From the NCBI GenBank assembly GCA_016789445.1, contig JAEUQT010000001.1, forward strand, positions 131,603 to 195,602: a stretch of DNA of 64,000 nt, given 5' to 3'. Source of the stretch: a bacterium (lineage in GTDB: Bacteria; Patescibacteriota; Minisyncoccia; Phycocordibacterales; UBA2100). The notes under the pieces are model-generated. The model saw nothing but the letters and a program-made list of their open reading frames with translations. It made no database searches and had not been told where the DNA came from. Below, one piece after another: positions 2,697-60,822 of this stretch. Each line of letters starts with the position of its first letter. Within the stretch, counting starts at the first letter, position 1. A program made the translations under genes and the position numbers.

Positions 2697-4487
2697 CTAG
2701 TTTCCTTCGCGCTTTGCCTTTGCTGCTGCGCTTTCGGTGAGATAGATCTTTCGCAGACGTACGCTCTCAGGAGTGACTTCGAGGTATTCATCCTTCTGCA
2801 TGAGCTCCAATCCGCGCTCGATGGAGAGCTCGTATGCCGGGACGAGATTGATGGCATCGTCGGTACCGGACGAACGCACGTTCGTGAGGTTCTTCCCCTT
2901 CGTCGGATTCACGTACATTTCGTCGCCCTTGGAGGTATCGCCGATGACCTGGCCTTCGTACACTTCGGTTCCCGGCGTGATGAAAAGACGGCCGCGATCC
3001 TGGAGATTCCAGAGCGAGAAGCCCAAGGCTTTTCCGGTCGCCATGGAAACCATCGAGCCCTGTGCACGGCGACGGATCTCTCCCGCGAACGGACGGAAGC
3101 CGATGACGCGTGCCGCGATGATACCCTCACCCTTCGTATCGATGATGAACTGGTTGCGGTAACCGAGAAGACCACGGGTCGGACCTTCGAAGATGAGACG
3201 CACCGTCGCTTCGTGGACGAGCATGTTGGTCATCTGGAAACCACGAGTACCGAGCTTTTCGATGACGGCGCCTTGGTATTCAGACGGGATATCGACGACG
3301 ACTTCTTCGAACGGCTCTTTCTTGACGCCCTCCTCTTCCTTCACGATGACCTGCGGCTGTGAGACCTGCATCTCGAAACCTTCACGGCGCATGTTCTCAA
3401 GGAGGATCGCGATATGGAGTTCGCCGCGACCAGAGACCTGGAAATTATCCGGCGACTGGAAGTCGACTTTGAGACCGACGTTGATCTCGAGCTCCTTCTC
3501 AAGGCGATCACGAAGCTGGCGCGAAGTGACGTACTTACCTTCGCGTCCGCCGAACGGAGAATTGTTGACGAGGAAGCTGAGTGTAATCGTCGGCTGATCG
3601 ACGGCGATTGCCGGAAGCGTCTCGACGTTGGCATCAGTCGTGACGGTCTCGCCGATTTCGATATCAGGCACGCCCGCGATGATGCAGATGTCTCCCGGTC
3701 CGACTTCCGTCGCTTCGACACGCTTGAGGCCCGTGAACGTGAACATCTTAGTGATCTTGCCGCTGCGGGTCTCTCCTGTAGGCTTCTTTACGAAGATGCT
3801 GCCGCCGGTCTTCAAAGTACCTTCGTACACGCGGCAGACCGCGAGGCGGCCGAGGAAGTTGTCGTACGCGAGGTTGAACGGCTGTGCGCGAAGTGCGGAA
3901 TCAGCAGACGCATTGGAGGCTACCGGAACCTTCTCAAGGATCATGTCGAGGAGCGGCGTGAGATCCTTGCGTTCATCATCGAGTTTGCGCATCGCGACAC
4001 CTTCGCGGCCGATGGCATACATGACCGGAAACTCTGCCTGCTCATCGGATGCGCCGAGCTCCAAGAAGAGTTCCAAGACCTGATCTTCTGCGCGAGCCGG
4101 ATCTGCGGCCGGCTTGTCGATCTTATTGAGGACGACGATCGGCTTGAGGCCGAGCTCGAGCGACTTCTTCAAGACGAATCGCGTCTGCGGCATCGGGCCT
4201 TCCTGCGCATCGACGACGAGAAGGACGCTGTCGATGGAGCGGAGCACGCGTTCGACCTCGGAACCGAAGTCAGCGTGGCCCGGCGTGTCAACGATGTTGA
4301 TCTTGGTACCCTTGTATTCCACCGAGGCATTCTTGGCGTAGATGGTGATGCCGCGCTCCTGTTCGAGCTTATTGGAGTCCATGGAAACCCCCTCCTCCGC
4401 TGCCCCGGTCTGCTTCAGGATGGCATCGGTAAGGGTCGTCTTCCCGTGGTCGACGTGGGCGATGATGGCGATGTTGCGGATTTCCAT
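2697..4487 (-). CDS. typA: translational GTPase TypA/BipA
   Basis: ORF 2697..4574. Start set at [19 protein letters not shown] (G1 motif). DTPGHADF and NKID motifs are present, and the length and C-terminal region match BipA. Confidence 0.95.
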
Positions 4488-16596: not shown

Positions 16597-16610
16597 ATTA
16601 CATGCGAGTA

Positions 16611-16747
16611 CGCCAGACAAGGATACTTTGGAAACCCTCGGTTTTCCAACGGTCGCCGAAGCGACCTGCCTTCCGACACGGGGAACTCCCGTTCCCCGAC
16701 CCCCTCCCTATCCAAGTCTGGCAACAAATCTCGTTGCACTCAATTTG
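16611..16747 (-). repeat. tRNA-trailing element, subfamily 2 (after tRNA-Gln)
   Basis: It shares gaaaccctcggttt and cttccgacacgg[hairpin]ccgacccctccc with the copy at 21842-21989. An inverted copy of the tRNA 3' end (16712-16729) forms an 18-bp hairpin with 16743-16760. A degenerate direct copy (cgccagacaaggat) lies at 16611-16624. Confidence 0.7.
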
Positions 16748-21800: not shown

Positions 21801-21841
21801 AATGCGGATATCCTACGCGAAAATGCTGGATTTTCAATCTT

Positions 21842-21989
21842 ACGGTCCGGGATTTCACTGCTCGCCGTATTCTCGGCTGCGCTTTCGAAACCCTCGGTTT
21901 CGAATAACTTCCGACACGGAGGGGGTCCGGTGGGTCCCCCTCCGACCCTCCCCCGTTCAATCCCGGTCGGGCCTCTCGCTACGCTCGTG
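21842..21989 (-). repeat. tRNA-trailing element, subfamily 2 (after tRNA-Thr GGU)
   Basis: Same conserved blocks as 16611-16747. The inverted copy gttcaatcccggtcg (about 21953-21967) is complementary to the tRNA T-arm/acceptor. The degenerate direct copy acggtccgggatt lies at 21842-21854. Confidence 0.7.
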
Positions 21990-25666: not shown

Positions 25667-25670
25667 GTTT

Positions 25671-25899
25671 GAGTGACGGGACTCGGTCACAGATATTTCT
25701 TGCGCCGTCGGACAGATTTTTTCGCGACCATAGGCATCGTCTCGGCCAAGAGCTCATTCGTCGCCGTCGCTCCTCATTCCTCTCGGCCCTGATTTTGCGA
25801 CCCCGTCTGCTGACGGGTCCGCCGCAAAATCTTTCGAGTCCCGCCACTCTGCTGAAAAACGCAACAACCCCGACGGCATGCGTCGGGGTTGGCGTTTTG
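25671..25899 (-). repeat. tRNA-trailing element, subfamily 1, composite (after tRNA-Asp)
   Basis: The direct copy gagtgacgggactcg at 25671-25685 matches tRNA 25903-25917 and is followed by GTCACAGATA. The inverted copy is ttcgagtcccgccactc at ~25832-25848. A terminator hairpin CCCCGACG/CGTCGGGG with U-run (25855-25888) lies next to the tRNA. Confidence 0.8.
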
Positions 25900-26352: not shown

Positions 26353-26370
26353 CTCTCTATTCTATCGTAG

Positions 26371-26539
26371 TGTCGAGGGTGGGGGTCGGTCACGAATAAT
26401 TTCTGTCCCGTCGGACAGAAATTTTCGCGACCCCGGCTCGCGGTCTCGCCTGCTGGCGAGACATCGCTCCGCCTTTCGACCCCCACACGCTGTGTGCGCA
26501 GGCACACAGCCCTCGACACAAATCCACTTCGTATATTTG
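26371..26539 (-). repeat. tRNA-trailing element, subfamily 1 (after tRNA-Met)
   Basis: The 18-nt direct repeat tgtcgagggtgggggtcg occurs at 26371-26388 and 26540-26557. Core hairpins lie at 26388-26432 and 26443-26462. The inverted copy is cgacccccac (26477-26486) + hairpin + cctcgaca (26511-26518). Confidence 0.85.
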
Positions 26540-26613
26540 TGTCGAGGGTGGGGGTCGAACCCACGACCTTGGCTTTATGAATGCCACGCTCTAACCAACT
26601 GAGCTACCCCGAC
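26540..26613 (-). tRNA. tRNA with CAU anticodon (elongator Met, or Ile2 if lysidinylated)
   Basis: GTCGGGG TA GCTC AGTTGGTTA GAGC G TGGCA TTCATAA AGCCA AGGTC GTGGG TTCGACC CCCAC CCTCGAC A. It has a 31:39 A-A mismatch. Confidence 0.85.
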
Positions 26614-27143: not shown

Positions 27144-27165
27144 GGCGGTAGTATGCCATATGTAC

Positions 27166-27425
27166 GCAGGGCGGGCTTGGTCAAGAACATTTCTTGCTTC
27201 CGTCGAAGCAAGAAATTTCTCGGCCCTGATGTTGCGGGGGCGGGCTTGGTCACGGATAATCTTCGCGCCGTCGCGCGAAGATTTCCGCGACCCCGGCTCG
27301 CGGTTTCGCCCACTGGCGAAACATCGCTCCGCCTTGCAAGTCCAGCACGAAAAGCGCACCGGCGCTTTTCTCCCCGCGACTGCACAAACACAAAACCGCC
27401 CGTACGGCGGCTTTGTGTTTGCTTG
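27166..27425 (-). repeat. tRNA-trailing element, subfamily 1, tandem (one short plus one full copy; after initiator-like tRNA)
   Basis: The direct copy gttgcgggggcggg at 27231-27244 matches 27425-27438. A second degenerate copy gcagggcgggcttg lies at 27166-27179. The core hairpin P-a is at 27303-27322. The inverted copy is tgcaagtcc + hairpin + ccccgc, and a terminator hairpin lies at ~27391-27415. Confidence 0.85.
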
Positions 27426-31891: not shown

Positions 31892-32344
31892 CTAGTAGCT
31901 GAGCTCGACGGAGCGCTGGAGCGCGCGACCGGAGAGCGAAATATCCGAGCAGGGCGTGCTGAAACCATCGGCATGGATGACCGTCCGCGGATCGGTCGTC
32001 TTTTTCTCCACCGCCACCTGCACGCAGTAGCCATTCGGTTCGAACTCGAATTCCATGGTGTATGGCAGCGCTCCCGGCGCGCCGGTAATGGTGAGCGGTG
32101 CACCGTTGCATGCCGGATCGAGTCCCGGGGTCGTGCTGCTGAAATATTCATAGCGCACGTCCCAGTACAGCGCACACTCAGCGCCGGTATCCGCCGCATA
32201 GAATGCATATTGCGAACTGCGCCCCAAGGACGAGAGGATGACCTGTTTCTGCGCAACGCTGAAAATCGAGATGCCCAGCGTAAGGACCAAGGACGCTACG
32301 AGTGCCGAGAACAATATCGTGAAGCCGCGCTGGTTTTTCATCAT
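31892..32344 (-). CDS. pseudopilin / minor pilin (PilX-like)
   Basis: N-terminal QRGFTILFSALVASLVL hydrophobic helix, within the pilus operon. Confidence 0.6.
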   Translation of the reverse strand: MMKNQRGFTILFSALVASLVLTLGISIFSVAQKQVILSSLGRSSQYAFYAADTGAECALYWDVRYEYFSSTTPGLDPACNGAPLTITGAPGALPYTMEFEFEPNGYCVQVAVEKKTTDPRTVIHADGFSTPCSDISLSGRALQRSVELSY

Positions 32345-32889
32345 ACGCTTCCATCGTTAACCCAGCGGTACAGATTCTCGTAGATCGTAAACGTGCGGAG
32401 CTGATTGAGGCCGCCCGTCGTCCATTCGACAGTGACGGTGACGCGGATCTCATCCTGCGTACCTTCGACGTACTCCGCCTCGACGGTCCGACGATATTTG
32501 GTACTCGCCCATCCGGTACTGTACCCGTAGAGGTCCCCATCAGTCTGCAGATACTGACAGGTGCCCGAGCAGGTAGCGATGGCGTTATTGCGCGTATCGA
32601 TGGTGAATGGTGTGCCGATCGGGATATTGCATAGCAGCGTCATCGGGGTGCACGCCGGATCAGGCTGATCATAGGCGATGCGCAGGATATTCCCGTCGCG
32701 GATCGAGCGCACCGATTCGATCGCCTCCTGTCCGAGATTGAATGCCGCGATCTGGTCACGTGCGTAATACGCAGCGGAAAGCGATTGCATGGTGAGTGAC
32801 ATCGGCGCCACGATCGCCACCGTGAGGATGGTGATCGCGACCAAGGTCTCGATGAGCGTCATCCCTTTTTGTGATTCGTGCGTTTTCAT
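32341..32889 (-). CDS. pseudopilin with prepilin-type N-terminal cleavage/methylation motif
   Basis: ORF 32341..32967 trimmed to MKTHESQKGMTLIETLVAITIL. The ATGA overlap with the upstream stop supports this start. Confidence 0.7.
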   Translation of the reverse strand: MKTHESQKGMTLIETLVAITILTVAIVAPMSLTMQSLSAAYYARDQIAAFNLGQEAIESVRSIRDGNILRIAYDQPDPACTPMTLLCNIPIGTPFTIDTRNNAIATCSGTCQYLQTDGDLYGYSTGWASTKYRRTVEAEYVEGTQDEIRVTVTVEWTTGGLNQLRTFTIYENLYRWVNDGSV

Positions 32890-32890
32890 A

Positions 32891-33466
32891 TCAGATATCG
32901 AGCGCACGCTGCACCGCGGTTGCCTGGATGTAGAACGTGGTACGGGTTTTCTCGTCATTGCCGGCACTTCCCTTCACCACGACCACGACCTTCGGCTGGG
33001 TGATGTCTCCCGGCTGGGTTCCGATGACATAGAACGTCAGTTCTTCGATGGAGATCTCCGGTGCCGTGATCGGGATCGAATTCGTGCCGCCGTTGAGCGA
33101 TCGATAGATGCGCCCTCCCTGGATGAAATATACCGCGCGCTCATTCTGCTGGGTGCTATCTGATCCATATGGAGCGAACGAAAAGAGATCGTCACCATTC
33201 GCGCAGTCTGCTCCTACGGCGCCTGGAATACCTGATCCGTTGCAATTGTAATGCGTACCCATGCGCGCGGCGCGTACCATGCTGTCCAGAGAGATATTGA
33301 GGTTGTTCATGACGCTCTCGAGCGTACGCGCCTTACGGTTCGCGTCCACGAGAGCCAGGAGCGCACCGACGGCGACCAGCATGATGATCGCGAAAAGCGA
33401 TACGGAAACCATCATCTCGACGAGCGAGAAACCCTTCTCAGAACGTATGTCGCGAGAAGATGTCAT
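32891..33466 (-). CDS. pseudopilin with prepilin-type N-terminal motif
   Basis: SEKGFSLVEMMVSVSLFAIIML. Confidence 0.7.
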   Translation of the reverse strand: MTSSRDIRSEKGFSLVEMMVSVSLFAIIMLVAVGALLALVDANRKARTLESVMNNLNISLDSMVRAARMGTHYNCNGSGIPGAVGADCANGDDLFSFAPYGSDSTQQNERAVYFIQGGRIYRSLNGGTNSIPITAPEISIEELTFYVIGTQPGDITQPKVVVVVKGSAGNDEKTRTTFYIQATAVQRALDI

Positions 33467-34053
33467 TGTACGGAGATCTGGCCCGAAGCTTCGACGATGA
33501 CTTCTGATTGTTCGCCGCTGCGAGACTGCAGCACGATACGCGCCCGGTCATCGAGCGTGGCCCCTGCGGAGCGGCGGATCATCGCATCCGGCTCGGGACG
33601 CCTGAAGAGCATGCTCAGCTGGGACAAACTACAGGTCTCGATCCCGTTCATCGCTCGGGCGCAGATATTCGCGATGCGGTATCCGCCGTTGAGCGTGGTC
33701 GAGGTGACCGTCTCTCCTGTATCGAAAACGCCGTTCTGGTTCACATCCCCGAACAGCACGTACGAACTCAGGGCATCCTCTGCCGGCTGCGTGATATGGA
33801 TCCCGTATCCCACATCGAAATTGACTCCTTGATACCGACGCACGGCGATACCGTAGACCTGTGCCTGACGGACCGAAAGCGCCATGTCATGCGCGAGGTT
33901 CTGTAAGACGATGAGATTGCCGAAGCGCGCGTTCGTCGAGAGGACCACGCCAGAGAGGATCATGAAGATCCCGGTCACTACCATCAATTCCACAAGACTA
34001 AAGCCCCGGGAAAGCCGAGAATCGGTGCGTAGGAATATATGAGAGCGAACCAT
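33463..34053 (-). CDS. pseudopilin with prepilin-type N-terminal motif
   Basis: ORF 33463..34467 trimmed to MVRSHIFLRTDSRLSRGFSLVELMVVTGIF. This is the only canonical start upstream of the G|F site, and it overlaps the pilD 3' end by 70 nt. Confidence 0.6.
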   Translation of the reverse strand: MVRSHIFLRTDSRLSRGFSLVELMVVTGIFMILSGVVLSTNARFGNLIVLQNLAHDMALSVRQAQVYGIAVRRYQGVNFDVGYGIHITQPAEDALSSYVLFGDVNQNGVFDTGETVTSTTLNGGYRIANICARAMNGIETCSLSQLSMLFRRPEPDAMIRRSAGATLDDRARIVLQSRSGEQSEVIVEASGQISVQ

Positions 34054-34835
34054 ACGATGCTGGTGCCGATGATGAGGAACGGTCCGAACGGCACTTCGCT
34101 CTTCATTGTAAATCCCTCCTTCCCTCCTCCCAAGCGAGTTATCCCAAGAGAATGGAGGACCTTCACGATATGCGGAAGCGGAATAAGGATGAATACTCCT
34201 ATGATCGCGCCGATGACGAAAGAATACATGAGCGCCAAATATCCGTACCCAAGGCCGAGAAGCCATCCCATACCGAGCGCGAATTTCACATCGCCGAACC
34301 CCATCCACGTACCACGCGAGATGAGCCACATGAGGAAAAGCGGGAGCGAAACCAGCGGCCCTGCCACGAGAAGCCACACGTAGGGCACCCACTCCCCCGT
34401 TGGCGCAAAGAGATACATGAGATAGAGGGAGAATACGAGCGCCAGAGCATTGAAACTCCACACCCATCGATCAGGCATGATCATGTGGTAGAGGTCGTAC
34501 ACGAATATCGCGATGCAGAAAATCGCAATCGCGCACCCGATCACCTGCGCGATAAGAGGAAGCGGCGCGAGACCGAGCATAAGAAACGAGATTCCTGCCG
34601 CGAGTTCGACTACGGGATACTGGACGGAGATCGAGGCACGGCACGAGGAGCACTTCCCGCGCAGCATGAGCCACGAAAGGACGGGAAGAAGCTCGTGCCA
34701 TGCAAGCACCCTGCCGCATTTCGGACACGAACTTCGTCCATCAAGCGCGCGCGTGCCGTGGCGAAGGATGAGCACATTCGTGAAGCTGCCGAAGATGAGG
34801 CCGAATCCGAGCCAGACGACGGCCTCGTAGAGCAT
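33984..34835 (-). CDS. pilD: prepilin peptidase (A24 family)
   Basis: The N-terminal C..C...L......P..S......G.C..C zinc motif, plus a polytopic region with GFGDVKF-type aspartates. Confidence 0.9.
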   Translation of the reverse strand: MLYEAVVWLGFGLIFGSFTNVLILRHGTRALDGRSSCPKCGRVLAWHELLPVLSWLMLRGKCSSCRASISVQYPVVELAAGISFLMLGLAPLPLIAQVIGCAIAIFCIAIFVYDLYHMIMPDRWVWSFNALALVFSLYLMYLFAPTGEWVPYVWLLVAGPLVSLPLFLMWLISRGTWMGFGDVKFALGMGWLLGLGYGYLALMYSFVIGAIIGVFILIPLPHIVKVLHSLGITRLGGGKEGFTMKSEVPFGPFLIIGTSIVWFALIYSYAPILGFPGALVLWN

Positions 34836-34896
34836 GCGGAGATTCTAACAGAAAAGCACACCTCTCGGTGTGCTTTTCCTTCAGAACAGAGAGAAA

Positions 34897-35388
34897 CTAC
34901 GGCGTTACGCAGAAGCGCGCGGTCGCACCACTGTCAGAGCAGTCGATGCCGCCGATCGGATTGGTATCAACATCGCCCGCAGGAACGGCCGAAGATCCAC
35001 CTTCGATATCAGCACCAATGACATAGCCTGGGCACGCTGGAGACGTTGTCGTACATGCAGTCGTACCGTCTGCCGCGAGCGCTGCATAGCTGTACGGCGC
35101 GAGCGTCGTCGGATCAAGCGGAAGCGCCGAGATGTACTTGCTGGTGACGAGCACCGACGTGGTTGCTGAGGCAAACGCTTCGGTAGCCGTCGGGAAACGC
35201 TGGTTTGCATCGTAGTAAAGCTCAAGCGCCAACTGAAGCTGCTTGATGTCGGAGATACGGCGTGCATCGCGACCCTTCTTACGGGCGCTGTTGAGTGACG
35301 CCAGGACGACCGACGAGAGGATACCGATGATGGCGATCACCACGAGGAGCTCGATGAGGGTGAAGCCGCGCTGAGATCGATTAAACAT
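34897..35388 (-). CDS. type IV pilin (major-pilin-like), paralog A
   Basis: MFNRSQRGFTLIELLVVIAIIGILSSVVLASL. The C-terminal domain contains Cys pairs. Confidence 0.88.
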   Translation of the reverse strand: MFNRSQRGFTLIELLVVIAIIGILSSVVLASLNSARKKGRDARRISDIKQLQLALELYYDANQRFPTATEAFASATTSVLVTSKYISALPLDPTTLAPYSYAALAADGTTACTTTSPACPGYVIGADIEGGSSAVPAGDVDTNPIGGIDCSDSGATARFCVTP

Positions 35389-35425
35389 AGTTATGATTGC
35401 GTTAATCCGCTAATGAATAACAAAC

Positions 35426-35872
35426 TTACGGTTGCTGACAGTACATCGGATCGGTGCAGGTTACGCTACCCACCGTACCGTCGATGTCCTGACTGAGCGC
35501 TGCGTTCGCCGTATCCTCAAGCGTTGCGCCGAGGATGTAGCTCGCACAGACACCGCCGCTTTGCGTACATGCTGCACCCGCGCTCGTAAGGTTATCGAAC
35601 GAGTACGAGCCCGATTGAGGATCTGTCGGCACGACTGAGATGTATGTCGGCGCAAGCTGCGAGAGAGCATCCGGATACTCGCTCGAGTTATTGTCATAAA
35701 AGAGCTCGAGCGCCAACTGAAGCTGCTTGATGTCGGAGATACGGCGTGCATCGCGACCCTTCTTACGGGCGCTGTTGAGTGACGCCAGGACGACCGACGA
35801 GAGGATACCGATGATGGCGATCACCACGAGGAGCTCGATGAGGGTGAAGCCGCGTTCATTTCGTGAAAACAT
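35426..35872 (-). CDS. type IV pilin (major-pilin-like), paralog B
   Basis: MFSRNERGFTLIELLVVIAIIGILSSVVLASL. Residues 8-56 are identical to paralog A at the DNA level. Confidence 0.88.
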   Translation of the reverse strand: MFSRNERGFTLIELLVVIAIIGILSSVVLASLNSARKKGRDARRISDIKQLQLALELFYDNNSSEYPDALSQLAPTYISVVPTDPQSGSYSFDNLTSAGAACTQSGGVCASYILGATLEDTANAALSQDIDGTVGSVTCTDPMYCQQP

Positions 35873-35978
35873 AGAATTGTGAATAAACGGTTAAAATTTG
35901 ATCGCTATGCACGCTACGCGCGATGCAATCATCATACGGCACATCACACTCCCCTTGTCGAGTGGGTGTGTATAACCG

Positions 35979-37184
35979 CTAGATACCTGACGCGATGTTG
36001 TAGATAGGCACGAGGACCGACGCGAGAAGGATGGCGACGCCGACGGCGAGCATGACGATCATGAACGGCTCGATGAGTGAGACGAGCGTGTCCACTGCGT
36101 TATTCACTTCGCGGCGGTAGAACTTCGCAATGGAATCAAGGATCGAACCCATATTGCCGGTCTCTTCGCCGATCTTGATCATCGCCACCATGATGCCCGG
36201 GATCTCCGGATGCTTACGGAACGCTTCGGAAACCGGCATACCGGCCTTCACGTCGACCGCTGCTTCGCGCAGGACGCGCTCGTACGTCGGGTCTTCGACG
36301 ACGGTGCCGGTGATCTCGAGTCCGCGCAGCATCTGAATACCCGATCGGAGCATGGTTGAGAGGTTGTCAGCGAGACGCGAGAGATAGAGGTTCTGATAGA
36401 TACCGCCGAGGACCGGGACCTGTAATCGTGCACGCGAGAAGACCACCTGACCGGTTTGTGTCTTGATGTAGCGATAGAGGAAAAAACCCGCAAGGACGAC
36501 GAGGATACCCCAGAGCAGTGCGTAATTGGCGAAGAGATTACTCATGCCGATGACGACGCGAGTATAGACCGGCACCGACTGCCCCACTTCCGTGAGCATG
36601 CCCGCGAGCTTCGGGATCACCAGCGTCATCATGAGCACCATGACGATGACGAACGTTCCCACGATGAACGCCGGATAGATGAGTGCGTTCTTCGCTTTCG
36701 CCGTGATTTCGTAGTTACGATCGAGGTAATCCGCGAGATAGGCAAACGTCTCATCGAGCTTGCCGGATTCCTCGCCGGCACGGATCATGTTCACATAGAA
36801 ACCGGAGAAGACTTCCGGATGCCGGGAAAGCGCCGCTGAAATCGCGCTACCCGCTTGGATATCCGATGCGATCGCGGAGAGTTTTGCAGCAAGCTGCGGC
36901 GTGCGTGCCTCCGCCGCAAGGAGCTGGAATCCGCGAAGCGCGGAAACCTGCGCCTCGAACAGCGTCGTCATCTGACGCGAGAGCATCACGATATCGCTCC
37001 CCTTGATACCGCTGAATATCTGGATGCTCCTCTGAAGGCCGACTTTCTGATCCGCCGGATCGATGGATGCGATGATGAGGCCGCGGCGCTGCAGAGCCGC
37101 GATCGCGACATCGATGTTCACCGCATCGACCGTACCGCTACGATCCGCTCCCTTATCGTCGACTGCCTTGTAGGAAAACAACAT
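35979..37184 (-). CDS. pilC: type IV pilus platform protein PilC (GspF family)
   Basis: Two GspF repeats, three transmembrane helices, 401 aa. Confidence 0.9.
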   Translation of the reverse strand: MLFSYKAVDDKGADRSGTVDAVNIDVAIAALQRRGLIIASIDPADQKVGLQRSIQIFSGIKGSDIVMLSRQMTTLFEAQVSALRGFQLLAAEARTPQLAAKLSAIASDIQAGSAISAALSRHPEVFSGFYVNMIRAGEESGKLDETFAYLADYLDRNYEITAKAKNALIYPAFIVGTFVIVMVLMMTLVIPKLAGMLTEVGQSVPVYTRVVIGMSNLFANYALLWGILVVLAGFFLYRYIKTQTGQVVFSRARLQVPVLGGIYQNLYLSRLADNLSTMLRSGIQMLRGLEITGTVVEDPTYERVLREAAVDVKAGMPVSEAFRKHPEIPGIMVAMIKIGEETGNMGSILDSIAKFYRREVNNAVDTLVSLIEPFMIVMLAVGVAILLASVLVPIYNIASGI

Positions 37185-37190
37185 ACTGGC

Positions 37191-38258
37191 TTAGAGCAAT
37201 TTCTGGAGCACGTTCGGATTGAGCGAATACTGGTAGGCGGTCTCGACGGTGATCTCTCCGCGCGAGACGAGTTCCGAAAGCGAGCGATTCATATCGATCA
37301 TGCCTTCCGCGGAAGAGGTCTCGATGACCGTATTGATCTCGTGCGTGCGTTTCTCGCGGATAAGATTCGCGACGGCTTTATTGTTGATGAGAAGCTCGTA
37401 CGCCGGGATGAGACCACCGGAAATGCGCGGCACGAGACGCTGCGAGAAGATCCCCGCGAGCGATGAGCCGAGCTGCAGGCGGATCTGATCCTGCTGCGAC
37501 GCCGGGAAGGTATCGATGATGCGGTCGATGGTCTGTGCTGCGTTGTTCGTGTGGAGCGTCGAGAAGACGAGGTGACCCGTTTCTGCCGCCGTGACCGCCG
37601 CGGCCATGGTTTCCGGTCCACGCATCTCCCCCACCAATATCACGTCCACGTCCTGACGGAATGCGCTCACCAGCGCGGTCGCGAAATCCTTCGTATCAAG
37701 AAGCACTTCACGCTGATCGATGATGGAGCGCTTCGGTTCGTAGATGTATTCGATCGGGTCCTCGATGGTGACGATGTGCTCCATGCGTTCCATGTTGATC
37801 ATCTCGATCATCGCGGAGAGCGTAGTCGATTTGCCCTGCCCGACCGGACCGACTACCAGGAAGAAGCCTTGGTTCTTGCGAGCGAACGTCGTGAGGATAT
37901 CCGGCAGGTTGAGCTCCTGCAGCGTCTTGATCTGCTTCGGAATAAGACGCAAAGCTATACCTACTGCACCGCGCTGGAAGAAAGCATTGCCGCGGAAGCG
38001 GTTTCCATCTGCGGTTTGATACGCGAAATCCAGCTCGAGCGTCGAGAAAAACCGGCTCTGCTGGTCCTGGTTGAGAAGCACCTTCGCGTACCCCATCGTG
38101 TCCTCTGCAGTAAGAACCGGCTCCTTGAGCATCGGGGTGAGATTCCCCGCGACACGGATCGTCGGGTGTGCACCGGTAGAAAAATGAAGGTCGGATCCGC
38201 CTTCATGCGTCAGGACCGTGATGTACTTCTTCAGCTGTGCATCGTAATCGAGCGCCAT
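37191..38258 (-). CDS. pilT: twitching-motility retraction ATPase PilT
   Basis: Walker A GPVGQGKST, Asp box, Walker B ILVGEMR, His box TGHLVFSTLHT. The 355 aa size fits PilT. Confidence 0.9.
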   Translation of the reverse strand: MALDYDAQLKKYITVLTHEGGSDLHFSTGAHPTIRVAGNLTPMLKEPVLTAEDTMGYAKVLLNQDQQSRFFSTLELDFAYQTADGNRFRGNAFFQRGAVGIALRLIPKQIKTLQELNLPDILTTFARKNQGFFLVVGPVGQGKSTTLSAMIEMINMERMEHIVTIEDPIEYIYEPKRSIIDQREVLLDTKDFATALVSAFRQDVDVILVGEMRGPETMAAAVTAAETGHLVFSTLHTNNAAQTIDRIIDTFPASQQDQIRLQLGSSLAGIFSQRLVPRISGGLIPAYELLINNKAVANLIREKRTHEINTVIETSSAEGMIDMNRSLSELVSRGEITVETAYQYSLNPNVLQKLL

Positions 38259-38319
38259 GAAATATATTGTAACGTACTTTTATAGGTCCCCCTCCCTATC
38301 CACACGCCGATGACGCGTA

Positions 38320-38706
38320 TCACTTCATTCCGATCTCTTCCTTCACCATTGAGACGACTTCCGACGGGATCATACTCGCCTTCACGACGTATTTCTGCGC
38401 ACCGAGCTCTTCCGCGTGCTTGCGATCGGCATCGTTGCTCTGGTTCGTGAGCGCGATGAGACGCGCGGTGCCGCCGAGCTTCTCGTCGCGGACGCCTTTC
38501 AGGAATTCGAAACCATCCTGTCCCGGCATGGTGATATCGAACAGGATGACATCAGCTTTCGCACCGCCGCGCAGCGCTTCTATTGCCTCATGCACTGAGA
38601 AACACGAGATCACCGTGAATCCTTCCTGCGTGAATTTAAGGCTGTACATGTCGAGGAGGAACTTATCATCGTCCACCAACATCACTGTCTTTCCGTTTTC
38701 TGCCAT
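38320..38706 (-). CDS. single-domain response regulator (CheY-like receiver)
   Basis: VMLVDDD...ILFDITMPGQDG...K receiver pattern; 128 aa. Confidence 0.85.
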   Translation of the reverse strand: MAENGKTVMLVDDDKFLLDMYSLKFTQEGFTVISCFSVHEAIEALRGGAKADVILFDITMPGQDGFEFLKGVRDEKLGGTARLIALTNQSNDADRKHAEELGAQKYVVKASMIPSEVVSMVKEEIGMK

Positions 38707-38714
38707 AGTGAAAA

Positions 38715-40442
38715 TTAATTCGTTTTCGTATCTTCTGGTTCTTCAGTATCAGCGGGCGTCTCTTCGGTAGCGGCAGGCTTTTTCTCTTCCGGCTCTTCCT
38801 CCGTATCCAAGAGGAGCGATGAGAGCGTATTCACTTCAGAGAACGGGACCTGCTTCGCGAACGCTTTCATTGTAGCATCCTCGCGCATCGTGAGCATTCC
38901 CTGCTCGCGTGCCGACGCCCAGATCTTCGAATCCACCGGGTTGGTAAGGACGATCTTCTCGATTGCGGTCGTCATTTCCATCACCTCGAAGACCGCGGCA
39001 CGTCCACGCATACCCGTCGGACATGCGGCGGTACGCTCTGGCTCATACACGGTGTCTTGTATCGGGAATCGGTATTCCTTCGGAAGGCTCGCCATATCCA
39101 TTTCCATCGACTTTCGATCGCTGGCGGAGAGCGGTACTGCCTTGCCGGTACCAGGACAAAGCGTACGCACGAGACGCTGCGCCATCGAAAGGATAAGCAC
39201 CGGTGGAATGAGGTACGGCTCCACTCCCATATCGATAAGGCGAGGGATGGTGCCGACCGCATCGTTGGTGTGGATCGTTGAGAGCACCAAGTGACCGGTG
39301 AGCGCCGCCTGCATCGCGAGCTTCGCCGTCTCACCGTCGCGGATTTCGCCGACCATGATGACATCCGGGTCCTGACGGAGCGTCGTGCGCAGACCGTTCG
39401 CGAACGTATACCCGATCTCAGGACGCACTTGTGACTGGATGATACCGTCGACGTGATATTCGATCGGATCCTCGAGTGAGAGCACGTTCTTATGCTCGCG
39501 ATCGAGCTCCGCAAGCATCGAGTAGAGCGTCGTGGATTTACCGGAACCGGTCGGACCCGAGATGAGGATGAGTCCGTGCGGTCGTTGGATCGCGTCGCGC
39601 ATGAGACGGAGATTGCGTTCCGAAAGACCGATCTGATCAAGTGGGATGAATCCCTGATCACGATCGAGGATACGCATCACCACCTTCTCACCGGCATACG
39701 ACGGGAATGTGGAGACACGGAAGTCGATCTGGCGATTGTCGAATGACGCCGAAAAGCGTCCGTCCTGCGGCTTACGTCGCTCGTCGAGTCGGATCGAGGA
39801 GAGGACCTTGATACGGGCGACAACTGCGCGATGCGTCTCAAGCGGCAAGACGACGCTGGTATGCAGATCGCCGTCGACACGATAACGGACGCGAAGCCCG
39901 GCGGAGGTCGGTTCGACGTGGATATCGGATGCTTTTCCGTCGATCGCATAGCGCAGGATCGTCGAGACGATCTTGATCGCTGGCGCGTCCTCGGTGATTG
40001 AACCTCCTCCTTCGGTAGCTCCCGCAAGATTGCCGAGCTGCAGCATCCCTTCATCGTCGGTCTCTTCTTTCTTGCGACCACTGGTACGCTCTTCCGATTC
40101 GAGGTCAGAGAGCGCCTTATCGACCTCCCCACCCAAACCCTTATACATCGAGAGGATCTTCTGCAGATCCTGTTCGCTCATGCGGAAGATCTTGAACGGC
40201 ATTCCCGTCTTGCGGGCGATGAAGTTCAATGCATCGATAGCAGCGATGTTATCGGGATCCACCATGCCGACCTCCAAGACATCCTCGACGACACCGAGCG
40301 GCGCGAGCTTATAGTGTTCCGCGGATTCCTGCGGGATGAATTTGAGGACATCGTACGGGATCTTCTGCTCGCCAAGAGTACGCGTCGGGATCGCGTTCGC
40401 GGCATTTCCCTGCCCTGCGCCTGCCTGGACCTCAGGAGGCAT
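38715..40442 (-). CDS. pilB: type IV pilus assembly ATPase PilB (GspE family)
   Basis: Walker A GPTGSGKST, Walker B MVGEIRD, His box TGHLVLSTIHT, and a tetracysteine-like region. Confidence 0.92.
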   Translation of the reverse strand: MPPEVQAGAGQGNAANAIPTRTLGEQKIPYDVLKFIPQESAEHYKLAPLGVVEDVLEVGMVDPDNIAAIDALNFIARKTGMPFKIFRMSEQDLQKILSMYKGLGGEVDKALSDLESEERTSGRKKEETDDEGMLQLGNLAGATEGGGSITEDAPAIKIVSTILRYAIDGKASDIHVEPTSAGLRVRYRVDGDLHTSVVLPLETHRAVVARIKVLSSIRLDERRKPQDGRFSASFDNRQIDFRVSTFPSYAGEKVVMRILDRDQGFIPLDQIGLSERNLRLMRDAIQRPHGLILISGPTGSGKSTTLYSMLAELDREHKNVLSLEDPIEYHVDGIIQSQVRPEIGYTFANGLRTTLRQDPDVIMVGEIRDGETAKLAMQAALTGHLVLSTIHTNDAVGTIPRLIDMGVEPYLIPPVLILSMAQRLVRTLCPGTGKAVPLSASDRKSMEMDMASLPKEYRFPIQDTVYEPERTAACPTGMRGRAAVFEVMEMTTAIEKIVLTNPVDSKIWASAREQGMLTMREDATMKAFAKQVPFSEVNTLSSLLLDTEEEPEEKKPAATEETPADTEEPEDTKTN

Positions 40443-40445
40443 ACG

Positions 40446-40814
40446 TTAGCGTGAACCTTGCGAGGTGGAAGTTGCAGCTCGTGTCGTCGTCGCGGTCTGG
40501 GTCGGCGTCTGGGTCATTCCAGGAAGCGGGAGGAACGGATTCTCACGACCCACCGGCTCAGGAACAATCTGCGTACCGTTATCCTTGAGCGCGACGAATG
40601 CGGGATCAGAGAAAATCGTGCCCGAGAGCGTGATGGCGCGCAGTTGCAACAACGTCTCGACGACATCCTTGTCCGCTCCGCTGGACGTCGTCAGATCCTC
40701 GGTCGTAAGAAGCGCCTGTGGCGTCGTGTCACGCAAGAAGAGGTACCACGCCGCGGTGGCAGCGACCACGCTACCCAGGATCAGTATCACGAATTTATTC
40801 TGGAGTATCGCCAT
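40446..40814 (-). CDS. pilus-locus membrane-anchored protein (PilP-position)
   Basis: N-terminal transmembrane helix and a T/S-rich tail. The role is inferred from position only. Confidence 0.45.
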   Translation of the reverse strand: MAILQNKFVILILGSVVAATAAWYLFLRDTTPQALLTTEDLTTSSGADKDVVETLLQLRAITLSGTIFSDPAFVALKDNGTQIVPEPVGRENPFLPLPGMTQTPTQTATTTRAATSTSQGSR

Positions 40815-40817
40815 ACA

Positions 40818-41399
40818 TTATTTGAGCCAGTAGGTACGGAGCGTAATGTCGAATCGGTAGATCGGCTCACCCCCTGCTGCAGAAGCCGCATCAGCATCGA
40901 GCGTAAGGTTTACGACATCGACCAAACGGAGACTTCCCTCAAGGGCGGTAATGAACTCGACGAATTTCGGATACGTACCGCTGGTTGCGAATTTGAGAGT
41001 AAGCGAGTCGTAGGTCTGACGACTTGGCCCGATCGAGACCTGCTGTTCCGCACCGTTCGCACCCGCGGTGCCGGTACCCGGAGCATTGATGACGACGTTC
41101 TGCAGCGCGAATCCGTACTGGCTCGCAAGCGTATCGAGATCCAAGACCAGTCGGACGTTATCGACGTGATCCGGAAGCAGTTTGTGGAGTCGATCGACAT
41201 CCGTAGGATTGAACGCGTTATAGCGAGACAGCAACTGTTGCTTGAGACGCTGCAATTCGGCTGCTTTATTGAGCGCCTGATCATATTGGGCGATCTGGGC
41301 CTGCACGCTTCGGACACCATCGTAAGCAGGACGGGTGTAGAAGAAGAACAGTCCGCCGGCTGCTGCTAGGAAAAGGAGCGAGAAAAGTGTGCGTGTCAT
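40818..41399 (-). CDS. pilO: PilO-like pilus assembly protein
   Basis: N-terminal transmembrane helix, a coiled coil and a ferredoxin-like C-terminus, in the pilM-N-O order. Confidence 0.6.
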   Translation of the reverse strand: MTRTLFSLLFLAAAGGLFFFYTRPAYDGVRSVQAQIAQYDQALNKAAELQRLKQQLLSRYNAFNPTDVDRLHKLLPDHVDNVRLVLDLDTLASQYGFALQNVVINAPGTGTAGANGAEQQVSIGPSRQTYDSLTLKFATSGTYPKFVEFITALEGSLRLVDVVNLTLDADAASAAGGEPIYRFDITLRTYWLK

Positions 41400-42130
41400 A
41401 GCTGGGGTTCAGGTTGTGCGTCTTGTGCGGGCGGCGTCTGTTGTTGTGATCCCTGCGGCTGGGCGCCGGTCATGTCCTGCGGGAGACCGAACGGCGTAGC
41501 TGGCTCTTCGGGCGCCGCCTGCTGCTGCATGCTTGCGCCCCCTGCACGCACCGAGCGGTATCGCAGGCCTTCAGGATTGATACCGGACGTAAAATCGAAA
41601 CGGACGCCCTGCGGCGTACGATTCATATTCGAGAAGATCGGACTCGTGATGACGCCGCTCTTGGACAGGAGGTCCGCTTCAAGCGCGATGGAATTCACAC
41701 TCTGCGCGACACCCTGCATGGCAAGCGTCATGTCGCTGGAGTTCTGCGCCGAGAAATCAAGGGTCGAGAACGCGACGGTCTGAAGCGTCAGCTGCTGGAG
41801 CACATTGAAAAGCGCGGACGGTGCCACGTGGATCGAAAGGACTTCATCCGCAGCGCGCATACGATCATCAAGACGCGTGAGCTCCGCGATGAGCGCCGGT
41901 TCGAATGCCGCCTTGGCACGATTGAGCTGATCGAGCTTGCTCGTCGCGGTGGTGTTCAGGAACTGCACATACAGGAAGACACCGACAGCCAGCACCGCCG
42001 ACGCGATGAAGAGAATGAGCCCCAGCAGCATGAACATGTCGAAACCGCCGCCTCCGGGTCCTTTCGATCCGGGAGTCGGTGCAGCTACAGGCGATTGCGG
42101 TATGAACGATGAGCGTATGTTTGATTCCAT
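41396..42130 (-). CDS. pilN: PilN-like pilus assembly protein
   Basis: Single transmembrane helix after a short cytoplasmic N-terminus, a coiled coil, and a position after pilM. Confidence 0.6.
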   Translation of the reverse strand: MESNIRSSFIPQSPVAAPTPGSKGPGGGGFDMFMLLGLILFIASAVLAVGVFLYVQFLNTTATSKLDQLNRAKAAFEPALIAELTRLDDRMRAADEVLSIHVAPSALFNVLQQLTLQTVAFSTLDFSAQNSSDMTLAMQGVAQSVNSIALEADLLSKSGVITSPIFSNMNRTPQGVRFDFTSGINPEGLRYRSVRAGGASMQQQAAPEEPATPFGLPQDMTGAQPQGSQQQTPPAQDAQPEPQL

Positions 42131-42133
42131 ATC

Positions 42134-43285
42134 TTAGCCTTGTCGAAGTTCCCTTAAGGCCAGACCGACGGCTACCGCGAAACCAGGACCGATCGCCTGA
42201 AGGACCTGATCGAGGAATGCCGGTGATTCCGTACGACTGAACGGATTCGCGATTTCGACCTGCGCATGCAGGGCCTGATTCGCGAAACCAAGAAGACCGG
42301 GAAGCGATGCCCCGCCCCCGGTCAGGAGGACGTGCGATACGTCTTTATTGTATCGTTTCCCGTAGCTCAATAGTACCTTATCCGCTTCACCGAAGATCCT
42401 TTCCAGTGTGGATATGAGCGACGACTTGATGCGATCGTTCTCGTCCGTCGAATACGCAGCGGATTCCGTGAGGCCGCGCTCACGCTTCACGCGCTCGGCC
42501 TTCTCGAATTCCCACGAGAGCGATCGCGCGAGCTGCTCGGTCATCTGCTGTCCTCCCATGTTCGCGAGGTGGGTCATGCGCACGACACCGCGTTCGACGA
42601 TGTACATCTTCGTAGTCGACGCACCCAAGTCGATGACGAGGACGGGCGCAACGCCGTGCCCCAACGAGGAACGGATCGCGCTGAAGATCTCGATCTCGTA
42701 GAAATGCGTGGAAAGACCGGCACCCGTTGAGATGACCTGGTAGTTGCGGACCGTATCGTTATGGATGGCGACGAGCAGCACCTCCTGCCCTTTCGCCTGC
42801 AGCGGCGCTTTCCCTTGGATGCGATCGAACGCTTCATTCGAGCCCTCATCCGGCGGGATGATGAACCAATCGAGCATGACTTCGGAGACCTGCATCGGGA
42901 TATATTTGCGCGCCTCGATCGGAATCATCTGCTTCAGCTGTTCAGGATCGGTCTTCGGAAGATCCAGGATGGAGACGAGACTCGAGGAGAATGGAATAGA
43001 GATGCCCGCTGCCTTTGCGGTCACGTTCGCCTCCTTCATGAGATCCAGGAGCACCTGGGTGGTCTGCTCGGGAGAGAGCTTCACCACCTTACCGACGGGT
43101 TCTTTTGCGTAGGGGCCAAGCGCGATCTCACCATACGTTTCAAGAACGGCAGCGCCATGCGCGCCACGCAACTGCACGACTTTCGCAGAAGATGCGCCGA
43201 TATCCACTCCGATCACGCTCGTATCACCTTTTCCCGTGAGTGCACCGGTCAATTTCTGCGTCAAAGATCCCAGCGACAACGCCAT
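42134..43285 (-). CDS. pilM: PilM (actin-like ATPase of the type IV pilus)
   Basis: GVDIGASSAKVV and VIDLGASTT phosphate-binding motifs; 383 aa. Confidence 0.85.
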   Translation of the reverse strand: MALSLGSLTQKLTGALTGKGDTSVIGVDIGASSAKVVQLRGAHGAAVLETYGEIALGPYAKEPVGKVVKLSPEQTTQVLLDLMKEANVTAKAAGISIPFSSSLVSILDLPKTDPEQLKQMIPIEARKYIPMQVSEVMLDWFIIPPDEGSNEAFDRIQGKAPLQAKGQEVLLVAIHNDTVRNYQVISTGAGLSTHFYEIEIFSAIRSSLGHGVAPVLVIDLGASTTKMYIVERGVVRMTHLANMGGQQMTEQLARSLSWEFEKAERVKRERGLTESAAYSTDENDRIKSSLISTLERIFGEADKVLLSYGKRYNKDVSHVLLTGGGASLPGLLGFANQALHAQVEIANPFSRTESPAFLDQVLQAIGPGFAVAVGLALRELRQG

Positions 43286-44412: not shown

Positions 44413-44415
44413 AAT

Positions 44416-44585
44416 TGCGGAGAGGGAGGGATTCGGTCACGGATAATTTTCTGCTGAAAATTTCCGCGACCCCGCCTCGTCGCCTACGCTCCTGCGACTT
44501 TCGAATCCCTCCGTTTCGCTATGCGAAACCGCCACCCTTTCGGGCGGCGCTCTCCGCAAAAAACTTGCGGGTCTCGTTTTTTTTG
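44416..44585 (-). repeat. tRNA-trailing element, subfamily 1 (after tRNA-Ser) - clearest exemplar
   Basis: The 20-nt direct repeat tgcggagagggagggattcg occurs at 44416-44435 and 44584-44603. The hairpin GGTCACGGATAATTTTC tgct GAAAATTTCCGCGACC lies at 44435-44471. The inverted copy is ttcgaatccctcc + two small hairpins + ctctccgc. Confidence 0.88.
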
Positions 44586-50982: not shown

Positions 50983-51148
50983 GTCACGGATAATTCAATG
51001 AGTGTCAATATCGAGTCCCCAGGGATAATTTTGTCGCCGTCGCTCCAAAATTTCCCCGGGCCTGGCTCGCGGTCGCGCGTACTCGCGCGACATCGCTCCG
51101 CCTCGGACCAGTAAACAAAAACAGCGCTCAATGCGCTGTTTTTGATTC
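50983..51148 (-). repeat. tRNA-trailing element, subfamily 1 (after tRNA-Ile), no distal direct repeat
   Basis: GTCACGGATAAT at 50983. There is an inner hairpin CCCAGGGATAATTTTG..CAAAATTTCCCCGGG, P-a GTCGCGCG tact CGCGCGAC (51072-51091), catcgctccgcc, and a short inverted match ggaccag. A bidirectional terminator ACAGCGC tcaat GCGCTGT lies at ~51121-51139. Confidence 0.8.
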
Positions 51149-56730: not shown

Positions 56731-56921
56731 CAGCCAATGCAAGCCGCCTTCCAGGCGGCTTTTGCATTTGCATTGCGACGGTGGAGATGAAGAAAGCGCC
56801 TGCGCGCTTTCTGCGGGGGTCTCGAAAGGCGGAGCGCTGTTCCGACAGCAGGCGGAACCGCGAGCCGGGGTCGCGGAAATTCAAAGGCGACGGCGTTTGA
56901 ATTATCTGTGACCGATTCCGC
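56731..56921 (+). repeat. trailing element, subfamily 1 (after tmRNA)
   Basis: Terminator AAGCCGCC ttcca GGCGGCTT TT (56741-56765). Inverted copy GGTGGAGATG + hairpin + GCGGGGGTCTCGAA. Core AGGCGGAGCGCTG, P-a 56839-56858, CCGCGAGCCGGGGTCGCGGAAAT...ATTATCTGTGAC (ends 56912). The direct copy cgattccgc at 56913-56921 matches 56713-56721. Confidence 0.85.
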
Positions 56922-56972
56922 CGCCGATATTCCTTCATGCAACCTTATGTGTTTTGATACGTCCACTGAGAT

Positions 56973-59556: not shown

Positions 59557-59576
59557 AGGCCATGTACGTCCGGACT

Positions 59577-59635
59577 GTCACGGATAATTTTCTGCTGAAA
59601 ATTTCCGCAACCCCGCCTCGACACCTAAAGTGTCT
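59577..59635 (-). repeat. solo partial copy of the subfamily-1 core (no tRNA adjacent)
   Basis: GTCACGGATAATTTTCTGCTGAAAATTTCCGCAACCCCGCCTCG differs at one base over 44 nt from the Ser-linked copy at 44436-44479. It lies 20 nt upstream of the dinB start. Confidence 0.8.
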
Positions 59636-59682
59636 CCGGCCTTGCGAAGCTCCATGTATTCGCTTCTCACCCCAGACCATAG

Positions 59683-60168
59683 CTACCTGAACTTAAGCGT
59701 GTAGGCTGGCTTGAATGCAGGAAGTGGTGCGTACCGCGAAGTGCGTGGTAGCGGCGTCCGCATGCGTGATGGCCGGATCTGTTTCGCAGGCTTTACCGGA
59801 TTCGTCTCGGCAAGAAATTCCATGACCGCGAGATTCACCGTAGCGAATTGCCGATCACTGATGCGACCGAGACGACGGATAAGCTGGTCCTTCCGCAGCA
59901 TGCGCATCTGCGAAAGGGTTCCGGTGCGGTTCGCACCCTTGAGTGACGTAAGAAAATAAAACGGGGTTTCCTTACCGCTCGCACGCGACGTAAGCGGCAA
60001 TCCCCAGAACGTATCGGTACCGAGCGTACGGAACACCAAGACCGGCCTCTCAGCTGCAGCGTCGGTTGCCGAAGGCACCGAACACCACCAGATATCCTGC
60101 GCACGATATTTCACTTCTCGTACGCGCGCTGTCTTCTTCGAAAAAATGTGGGAAAGCTGTTTAAACAT
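59683..60168 (-). CDS. MazF/PemK-family toxin-like protein with basic C-terminal tail
   Basis: DIWWCSV......ERPVLVF.......FWGLPLTS.........F......G...TLSQMRMLRKDQLIRRLG.IS...F matches the solitary PemK-like pattern. Confidence 0.7.
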   Translation of the reverse strand: MFKQLSHIFSKKTARVREVKYRAQDIWWCSVPSATDAAAERPVLVFRTLGTDTFWGLPLTSRASGKETPFYFLTSLKGANRTGTLSQMRMLRKDQLIRRLGRISDRQFATVNLAVMEFLAETNPVKPAKQIRPSRMRTPLPRTSRYAPLPAFKPAYTLKFR

Positions 60169-60187
60169 ATGCTGGTTGGTTCCGCTA

Positions 60188-60760: not shown

Positions 60761-60793
60761 ACATGTTTTCCCTAGTAATTCCTTATGGAGTTC

Positions 60794-60822
60794 AGTGTAG
60801 TGAACCATGGTTCACCAGTCAA
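60794..60822 (-). promoter_or_regulatory. lexA promoter TTGACT-N17-TACACT with an embedded SOS (Cheo-type) box GTGAACCATGGTTCAC
   Basis: The -35 is at 60817-60822 and the -10 at 60794-60799. The perfect 16-bp palindrome at 60800-60815 contains GAAC-N4-GTTC. Confidence 0.75.

Follow-up and report, generated by a model that had tools for sequence, protein, structure and literature searches.

Integron cassettes are non-autonomous, carry zero or few genes, lie in one orientation and build up arrays. Their attC site, an imperfect hairpin, is active when one strand folds; some extrahelical or mismatched bases are conserved in it, the distal stem varies freely, and the site is completed only once the two ends of the cassette are joined. 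Single-strand transposition from the lagging-strand template is found in IS200/IS605 elements, PATEs and REP/RAYT systems; these have subterminal imperfect hairpins with a bulged base, and their cleavage sites are set by the pairing of an internal guide with the flank or the target. Tyrosine-integrase islands and prophages enter tRNA and tmRNA genes at the T-loop or at the 3' end, bring a replacement 3' end with them, accrete in tandem and leave a direct repeat from the crossover to the end of the tRNA (19-25 nt in our case). In the XerCD elements of the CTX-phi type (IMEX), two inverted segments of a single-stranded DNA fold rebuild a target-like duplex, and the enzyme is that of the host. 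These are the traits by which each system resembles the element described here. To our knowledge, target choice by base pairing is so far limited to the 4-nt guides of IS200/IS605 and to the bridge RNAs of IS110.

The bacteria of the CPR have very small genomes and few recognised mobile elements. In one of them we analyzed a window, the whole stretch of 64 kb to which all coordinates refer, and compared it with loci of related species. ARAGORN and Rfam recognised nine tRNA or tmRNA genes in it and no RNA of any further known family, and eight of the nine genes carry an insert of one design. A covariance model made from 35 copies found seven copies in the window, all of them on the tRNA-sense strand. 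The insert is probably a new integrative element, cassette-like, folded as a single strand and restoring the gene that it enters, which matches no described family; it lies behind almost every tRNA gene of this CPR bacterium and is also present in more than 100 related species. In the sense of the gene, the order of its parts is the gene ending in X_e, a loop L1 (often with ACGAAGTGA), the antisense segment X'a, a hairpin P-c with a CUGC loop, the antisense segment X'b, GAAA, the core ending in CGTGACC, and X_chr. The copy behind the first tRNA-Met gene, Met(1), is laid out as follows.

26388..26473, minus strand: core of the tRNA-Met(1) copy, 106.5 bits, supported by covariation and by the strand test, with P-b at 26388-26432 and P-a at 26435-26473
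26370..26388, minus strand: X_chr, a displaced direct copy of the tRNA-Met 3' end and a 19-nt exact repeat of 26539-26557; it starts at T-loop C56, ends 1-2 nt past the tRNA and abuts the P-b base
26474..26486, minus strand: X'b, read from the sequence as antisense of the T-loop and the 3' T-stem strand of tRNA-Met; it lies directly 5' of the core on the sense strand and is predicted to pair with the intact tRNA 3' end
26490..26509, minus strand: P-c, a branch hairpin with a loop of the CUGC type, a motif that recurs across loci; many other copies have an intrinsic terminator here
26510..26519, minus strand: X'a, antisense of the acceptor 3' strand of tRNA-Met
26520..26538, minus strand: L1 loop, which holds the ACGAAGTG motif common to many long-type copies (L083, L017, L052, L095, L100) and is the cargo position in large versions
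26539..26613, minus strand: tRNA-Met (CAT), whose last 19 nt (26539-26557) are X_e, probably a copy borne by the element

The other copies and remnants in the window are these.

27248..27333, minus strand: core behind tRNA-Met(2), 107 bits, with X_chr at 27230-27248
27162..27226, minus strand: older degenerate insertion at tRNA-Met(2), with a covariance-model match at 27179-27235 (E=0.0018)
44435..44498, minus strand: short-type core behind tRNA-Ser (GCT), with X_chr at 44414-44435 and X'b at 44499-44514
51017..51102, minus strand: core behind tRNA-Ile (TAT), 88.1 bits, of the class B (3'-end) type
56828..56913, plus strand: core behind the tmRNA gene, 97.3 bits, with X'a at 56780-56789, P-c at 56790-56812, X'b at 56813-56827 and a decayed X_chr at 56914-56933
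59576..59640, minus strand: orphan short-type core between a MazF-like gene and dinB
25670..25860, minus strand: degenerate composite behind tRNA-Asp, made up of what is left of a P-b (25685-25729), a diverged core (25744-25831) and X_chr (25670-25686)

The core at 26388-26473 has 86 nt and two helices. On the plus strand, P-b (26388-26432) has 20 bp with one bulged T and one A opposite C, and P-a is an 8-bp hairpin (26443-26462) extended to 26435-26473 via GCG/CGC and GSC/GS'C triplets. The hand-drawn structure was scored on an alignment of 35 long-type cores read on the tRNA-sense strand, where 93% of the cells were paired and 20 of the 34 pairs showed changes on both sides. The covariation score was 0.416 versus 0.157 for shuffled alignments, none of the 500 shuffles being equally high, and pairing dropped to 28-45% in a control with slid partners. 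The covariance model built from this alignment then matched 127 copies in 100 Patescibacteria loci, with 93.4% pairing and compensatory changes in 30 of the 34 base pairs. The retrieval pattern fixed CGCGACCCCGSCTCG, in such a way that invariance inside CGCGACCCCGSCTCG is a product of ascertainment, while that does not apply to the variable stems. A first, sequence-only reading of this DNA, whose quoted sequences are all present where it had placed them, had proposed compensatory variation of the hairpins and named a larger alignment as the test; the 127 copies bear it out. Both of its exclusions, of neutral decay and of coding sequence, also hold.

The same reading had singled out the alternation of CGGA/TCCG with CGAA/TTCG as a covariation, and all four Watson-Crick types were found at this position among the 35 cores (GC 25, AU 8, CG 1, UA 1). 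Its conserved bulge, a T on the plus strand, is an A on the tRNA-sense strand and is invariant in the 35-core alignment. The conserved A opposite C, predicted to be a G-U on the tRNA-sense strand, corresponds to pair five of P-b and is indeed G.U in 35 of 35 and in 120 of 127 copies; pair seven, the next but one, is G.U or G-C and never A-U in the 127 copies. On the sense strand the core starts with GSCGGAG and the base of P-b is GGTCGCG/CGTGACC, which in the Ile copy is swapped to CCCGGGG/CCCTGGG with the G.T retained, a swap that had already been seen. The P-a base, the P-b tip and often also the helix with the T-loop have a 2x2 internal loop of CGAG over CGAG, which amounts to tandem G.A. 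The distal stems covary without conservation of sequence. No GNRA or UNCG loops were found at the hairpin tips, and in several copies the tip is GCGAAGC or CGAAG; GCGAAGC is an unusually stable DNA mini-hairpin.

Which of the two strands folds can be read from the mismatches. In the paired columns of the tRNA-sense strand, G.T or T.G was found in 71 cells and A.C or C.A in 4 (17 versus 4 outside the two fixed positions), and G.A or A.G in 71 cells versus 3 with C.T or T.C, in agreement with the tRNA direction called by the first reading. The covariance model gave 107 bits on the sense strand and at most 29 bits on the opposite strand at the same loci, and the predicted energies do not separate the strands (-74 kcal/mol for the sense strand versus -72.5). 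The one-sided spectrum of mismatches and the model scores thus show that selection has acted on the folding of the tRNA-sense strand only, a single strand that has the same polarity as the gene beside it. G.T and tandem G.A are tolerated in RNA and DNA alike, and therefore do not decide the nature of the nucleic acid. The GC skew is negative on the plus strand over most of the window, so the minus strand is likely the lagging-strand template, and six of the seven window copies fold on this inferred template.

The core forms the right end of an insertion that extends from the tRNA, X_e included, to the core's last C, exactly where the repeat of the displaced tRNA 3' end starts. A tRNA lies within 400 nt of 72 of the 99 parsed copies, and all 72 are 3' of the tRNA and co-oriented with it; some copies with no called tRNA nearby follow tmRNA genes that ARAGORN missed. 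In class A copies the repeated segment X has 19-25 nt, starts at T-loop C56, ends 1-2 nt beyond the tRNA and matches the genomic trailer, not CCA, and in class B copies it consists of the last few tRNA nucleotides and the trailer. The repeat has 5-31 nt and tracks the gene end, which led us to discard a target-site duplication of fixed length. A primer-binding site for mature tRNA was also discarded, since X' matches the genomic trailer and not CCA.

The segment X' is an antisense of 10-21 nt to X_e. When the 18 nt 5' of the core were compared with the cognate X_e, the longest perfect complement had a median of 9 nt (mean 9.0), versus 5 nt with non-cognate tRNAs (mean 4.95) and 5 nt with X_chr (mean 5.7), and in L052, L067, L120 and L017, four loci whose X_e is not the same as their X_chr, X' goes with X_e. 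As X' matches X_e over X_chr, the helix that closes the core is X_e:X' and not one between paired flanks. A closing helix of X' with the displaced copy was dropped for the same reason, X' matching the intact gene end. A pairing of the flanks had been noted from the letters; X' pairs with X_e rather than X_chr, and in the Met(1) and Ser copies, whose repeats are still perfect, both pairings are possible. That reading had overlooked that the element reaches the tRNA with an antisense segment, that this segment pairs with X_e, and that the element is spread among Patescibacteria. When the sense strand of the whole Met(1) element is folded, X_e pairs with X'a and X'b, and P-c, P-a and P-b form (-74 kcal/mol, z -11.9). 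X' is still complementary to X_e where X_chr has decayed, which could mean function in place, not mobility. The sequences 5' of the left junction (GGGTTC, GGGAGC, GGCACC, GGGAAC) are loosely like the right end GTGACC, a likeness on which nothing here relies. Kissing of the CUGC loop of P-c with AGCAG loops was also considered and rejected, because the two are complementary in the consensus but altered P-a loops (Met2, L006, L014, L061, L070) have no matching change.

The distribution of the element was studied by a pattern scan (ATAATN{10,40}CGCGACCCCGSCTCG) over 185,579 species genomes, which gave at least 120 matches. Among the matches listed, all but about four are in Patescibacteria genomes assembled from metagenomes, with Saccharibacteria, Kaiser-, Adler-, Nomura-, Taylor-, Zambryskii-, Vogel- and Niyogibacteria and other Paceibacteria among them. 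The core pattern had no match in viral contigs, phage records or plasmid records. Cores in distant relatives share 82-90% identity with those of this genome, and the ftsH DNA only 68-71%. One conserved core serves more than 20 different targets, among them tRNA T-loops and 3' ends, tmRNA and the C-terminus of topA, and on insertion the gene is kept intact, its original 3' end, X_chr, being moved just beyond the base of P-b. In the topA genes of L006 and L086 the element lies some 20 codons ahead of the DNA topoisomerase I stop and provides the last ~20 codons, in such a way that the reading frame runs through element-borne codons (...MMEGTKTIPERCSNK...) and the displaced, diverged topA codons stand after the core (KTIPERCSNTKCPNHRPDK in L086).

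The element measures around 130-200 nt, and its small copies have no ORF. Cargo versions of 5 kb (L003) and 2.4 kb (L099) hold their genes between X_e and X', including a periplasmic binding protein, a CopG-like protein and unknowns. Tandem arrays were found in L016, L070, L095 and at tRNA-Met(2) of the window, where the older insertion has a P-b-like hairpin (27179-27226) followed by a second decayed tRNA 3' end (27162-27180). Among syntenic tRNA pairs, those that lack the element have spacers of 0-41 nt and those that carry it 102-264 nt, and tRNA-Thr carries this core, core-1, in L008 and a different one in the window. The predicted empty alleles of tRNA-Val/tRNA-Pro in L004 and tRNA-Ser/comF in the window were absent from two metagenome scans, and neither an excised circle nor an empty site was recovered. 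Exact window proteins were found elsewhere only in contigs of one sample (L121, L122; Logan, SRR24576372), of which one has just 1,584 bp and would fit an assembly break at a repeated element.

Some sites depart from the common layout. In L002 (~960-1080) and L035 (~4200-4420) core-1 lies inside 5S rRNA genes, antisense and near the 5S motif GGTCAC; these two insertions have no X_e, and the 5S gene is interrupted or has an expansion. The orphan copy of the window stands 20 nt before the start of dinB, between it and the toxin gene, in a row of genes on the minus strand (58252-60808) for a LexA-like protein (Peptidase_S24), a MazF/PemK-like toxin and the Y-family polymerase DinB. The 40 nt upstream of the orphan (59641-59682, GGGTGAGAAGCGAATACATGGAGCTTCGCAAGG) are shared with the 5S-inserted copy of L035 and include 7-8 nt of reverse-complemented 5S sequence. 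The shared 40 nt with a part derived from 5S, in a window without a 5S gene, suggest that the element moved with its left flank. The spacer between tRNA-Arg(TCT) and tRNA-Val(TAC) in L101 combines X and X' with another X-like repeat (ATAGTGCAGAG-CACTAT-TGGTGCAGAG) but has no core, and may be a scar after core loss.

Two further core families were detected. The second, unrelated to core-1, lies on the minus strand behind tRNA-Gln (16600-16745) and tRNA-Thr(GGT) (21830-21985), has the motif …GGGTCGG-hairpin-CCGTGTCGGAAG-hairpin-CCGAGGGTTTC… and repeats the layout of core-1, with a full tRNA 3' end antisense, the core and a decayed copy of the tRNA end; none of the 122 loci examined has it. The third (TCGAAAAGCTTTTC…AAAGGTRTACTG-hairpin) is placed likewise with respect to T-loop antisense segments and in some cases stands in tandem with core-1 (L018 175-186 and 435-446, L037 134-145, L062 1701-1712, L093 2834-2845, L112 317-328 and 2890-2901). 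A gene for a protein of around 226 aa is found just upstream of element-carrying tRNA genes, slightly overlapping them (L057 1595-2275, L077 909-1628, L117 6039-6728, L115 4335-5000, L085 6043-6723, L039 305-1005); the protein has an FWAEGTK motif, an N-terminus that is helix-turn-helix-like by eye and no Pfam or PHROGs match, and its gene may be homing-endonuclease-like. The window also contains a gene cluster with pilin-like N-termini (FTLIELLVV...) on the minus strand (32341-43285), which from these N-termini alone we read as a putative type IV pilus/competence cluster (pilins, PilB/PilT/PilC-like proteins and a response regulator).

Regarding transcription, intrinsic terminators in the sense direction stand between the tRNA and the core at tRNA-Asp and tRNA-Met(2) of the window and in most class B copies, where P-c followed by a T-run makes the terminator, and they argue against co-transcription. 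The window showed no sigma-70-like promoter in the stretches that separate tRNA and core. In L104 and L032, around 60-100 nt upstream of the core, the conserved motif GGT[GT]CGAGCTT.GT..TA[CT]AAT.G.CAC takes the place of the expected tRNA 3' half and looks like an extended -10 promoter (TTG...TAYAAT) reading towards the element.

A search for the enzyme found no recombinase, HUH enzyme or resolvase adjoining the ~120 loci or within the cargo, and all-against-all clustering of the neighbouring ORFs gave no linked recombinase or partner protein gene. With XerD, IS200 TnpA and resolvase as phmmer queries no linked enzyme was detected among 1745 ORFs (~120 loci and the window): three ORFs are XerD-like, none consistently adjacent, and IS200 TnpA had no match in the locus neighbourhoods. 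Pfam and PHROGs identified no recombinase among the cargo and window ORFs, the cargo of L003 and L099 having no integrase. Only tRNA and tmRNA reached the Rfam gathering score, and a permissive Rfam scan of the element gave chance microRNA hairpins as the best sub-threshold hits (E above 2). No known ribozyme matched, the hammerhead being checked by eye and the self-cleaving families of Rfam by scan, and no published description of the element was found in the literature.

The layout, the fold of one strand, the specificity of X' and the insertions that restore the gene are plain in the copies. The reading that we give a slightly better than even chance is that of a cassette-like integrative element, small, non-autonomous and site-specific, which has the core as its conserved right end and whose sense strand folds as a single-stranded DNA recombination site. 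The sense strand would be exposed as single-stranded DNA, X_e:X' would form a helix P1 that meets P-a and P-b at a three-way junction, and this would bring the left junction (5' of X_e) beside the right junction (3' of ...CGTGACC). One strand exchange by a putative trans-acting strand-transferase would then free a circle and rejoin the gene to X_chr, and the reverse would be integration, in which X' would pair with the target instead of X_e and in this way choose the site. A protein would recognise the invariant G.T wobble, the bulged A and the tandem G.A modules of the CGAG/CGAG type.

The first reading had left the choice between an RNA made in the tRNA direction and a folded single-stranded DNA recombination substrate, and the data support this pair of options, with the surroundings favouring DNA. 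An element that is mobile in the same manner, with the fold belonging to an element-encoded sense RNA of the guide or bridge type, whose X' directs a trans-acting recombinase or nuclease (cf. the IS110 bridge RNAs and the omega RNAs of TnpB/IscB), seems to us a rather unlikely but serious alternative. G.U and tandem G.A are equally typical of RNA, X' is guide-like in length (10-21 nt) and specificity, and the promoter-like motif of L104 and L032, in the sense direction, together with the retention of X' where X_chr decays also speaks for an element-encoded RNA. Against such an RNA stand the terminators placed before the core, the lack of a promoter between tRNA and core in the window, hairpin tips with no GNRA or UNCG and several with GCGAAGC, stable as DNA, and the searches that gave neither an Rfam match nor a linked partner protein gene. 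Thus the terminators, the promoter search in the window, the tip loops, the junction exactly at the foot of P-b and the lagging-strand bias favour the DNA reading, as do the end of the core where the displaced copy begins, the arrays, the cargo and the replacement of the end of a protein gene, although this is not proof.

Immobility would be an alternative of another kind, the core being then a vertically inherited, host-beneficial cis-acting RNA or DNA module of tRNA genes with a role in 3' processing, termination or stability. Such a module would agree with its presence at eight of the nine tRNA and tmRNA genes, with the very high conservation across classes and with the terminator that it provides, but it also appears in the coding end of topA, antisense in 5S rRNA genes and at an orphan locus, older copies in decay stand in arrays with it, it can hold 2.4-5 kb of cargo, and the same tRNA has different core types depending on the species while syntenic tRNA pairs may have no element, in such a way that we regard it as improbable. 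Least credible, and already disfavoured, is a double-stranded protein-binding palindrome or a plus-strand RNA antisense to the tRNA. The two strands do have similar predicted energies, and the first 19 nt of a plus transcript would be antisense to the tRNA 3' end, but the irregularities of the plus strand are A.C and C.T/T.C (the 71+71 cells on one strand versus 4+3 on the other), it scores 29 bits against 107, and the distal stems covary without conservation, which a double-stranded site does not need.

The cassette reading can be carried further, to enzyme-less mini-cassettes that move as folded single strands and whose X' pairing picks the 3' ends of tRNA, tmRNA and topA genes, in a reprogrammable and gene-repairing guided integration, but this fuller version we put forward tentatively, as a possibility that still has the odds against it. 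The element could represent a new mechanism of guided integration: if X' guides the process, a guide of 10-20 nt would be built into the moving strand itself, and could be reprogrammable. The element also matters for gene flow in tiny genomes, with inserts at eight of nine tRNA and tmRNA genes and a core conserved above housekeeping genes. It further explains many partial tRNA genes and assembly breaks in metagenome-assembled CPR genomes, and is a candidate for a new entry in Rfam or of the ISfinder type.

When compared with the described systems, the element has the attC features of an invariant bulged base (here A), an invariant G.T, a covarying distal stem and one-sided mismatches. Unlike attC, it has no RYYYAAC/GTTRRRY boxes (the base of P-b is GGTCGCG/CGTGACC), the base of its hairpin is highly conserved, and it has two hairpins and a target-specific helix. 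It differs from integrons in its many tRNA, tmRNA and topA targets versus a single attI, and no intI was found near the element loci. With respect to IS200/IS605, the guide has 4 nt there and X' 10-21 nt here; there the hairpins of the two ends resemble each other and the target is not copied, whereas here P-a and P-b are different sequences, X_e, which varies, makes up the left end and there is a target repeat of 5-31 nt. DDE-type MITEs are also unlike it, the element having neither conserved terminal inverted repeats nor a target-site duplication of fixed length (5-31 nt).

Tyrosine-integrase islands are distinguished from an element of ~130-200 nt with no integrase, with one core for more than 20 targets, an internal antisense of the target and selection for a strand-specific fold. 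IMEX use dif only, whereas the targets here are tRNA, tmRNA and topA, and the element has no phage genome. A dif-like Xer site within P-b was discarded, GGT..CG.ATAA being only partial and the cleavage side and stem length unfit; in a comparison by eye with dif sequences, no dif-like pair of arms fits P-b, which is too short for two arms and a central region. The element fails defining features of each of these systems, and appears to work most like the attC cassettes of integrons and the single-strand transposition of IS200/IS605, with genes targeted as tyrosine-integrase islands do.
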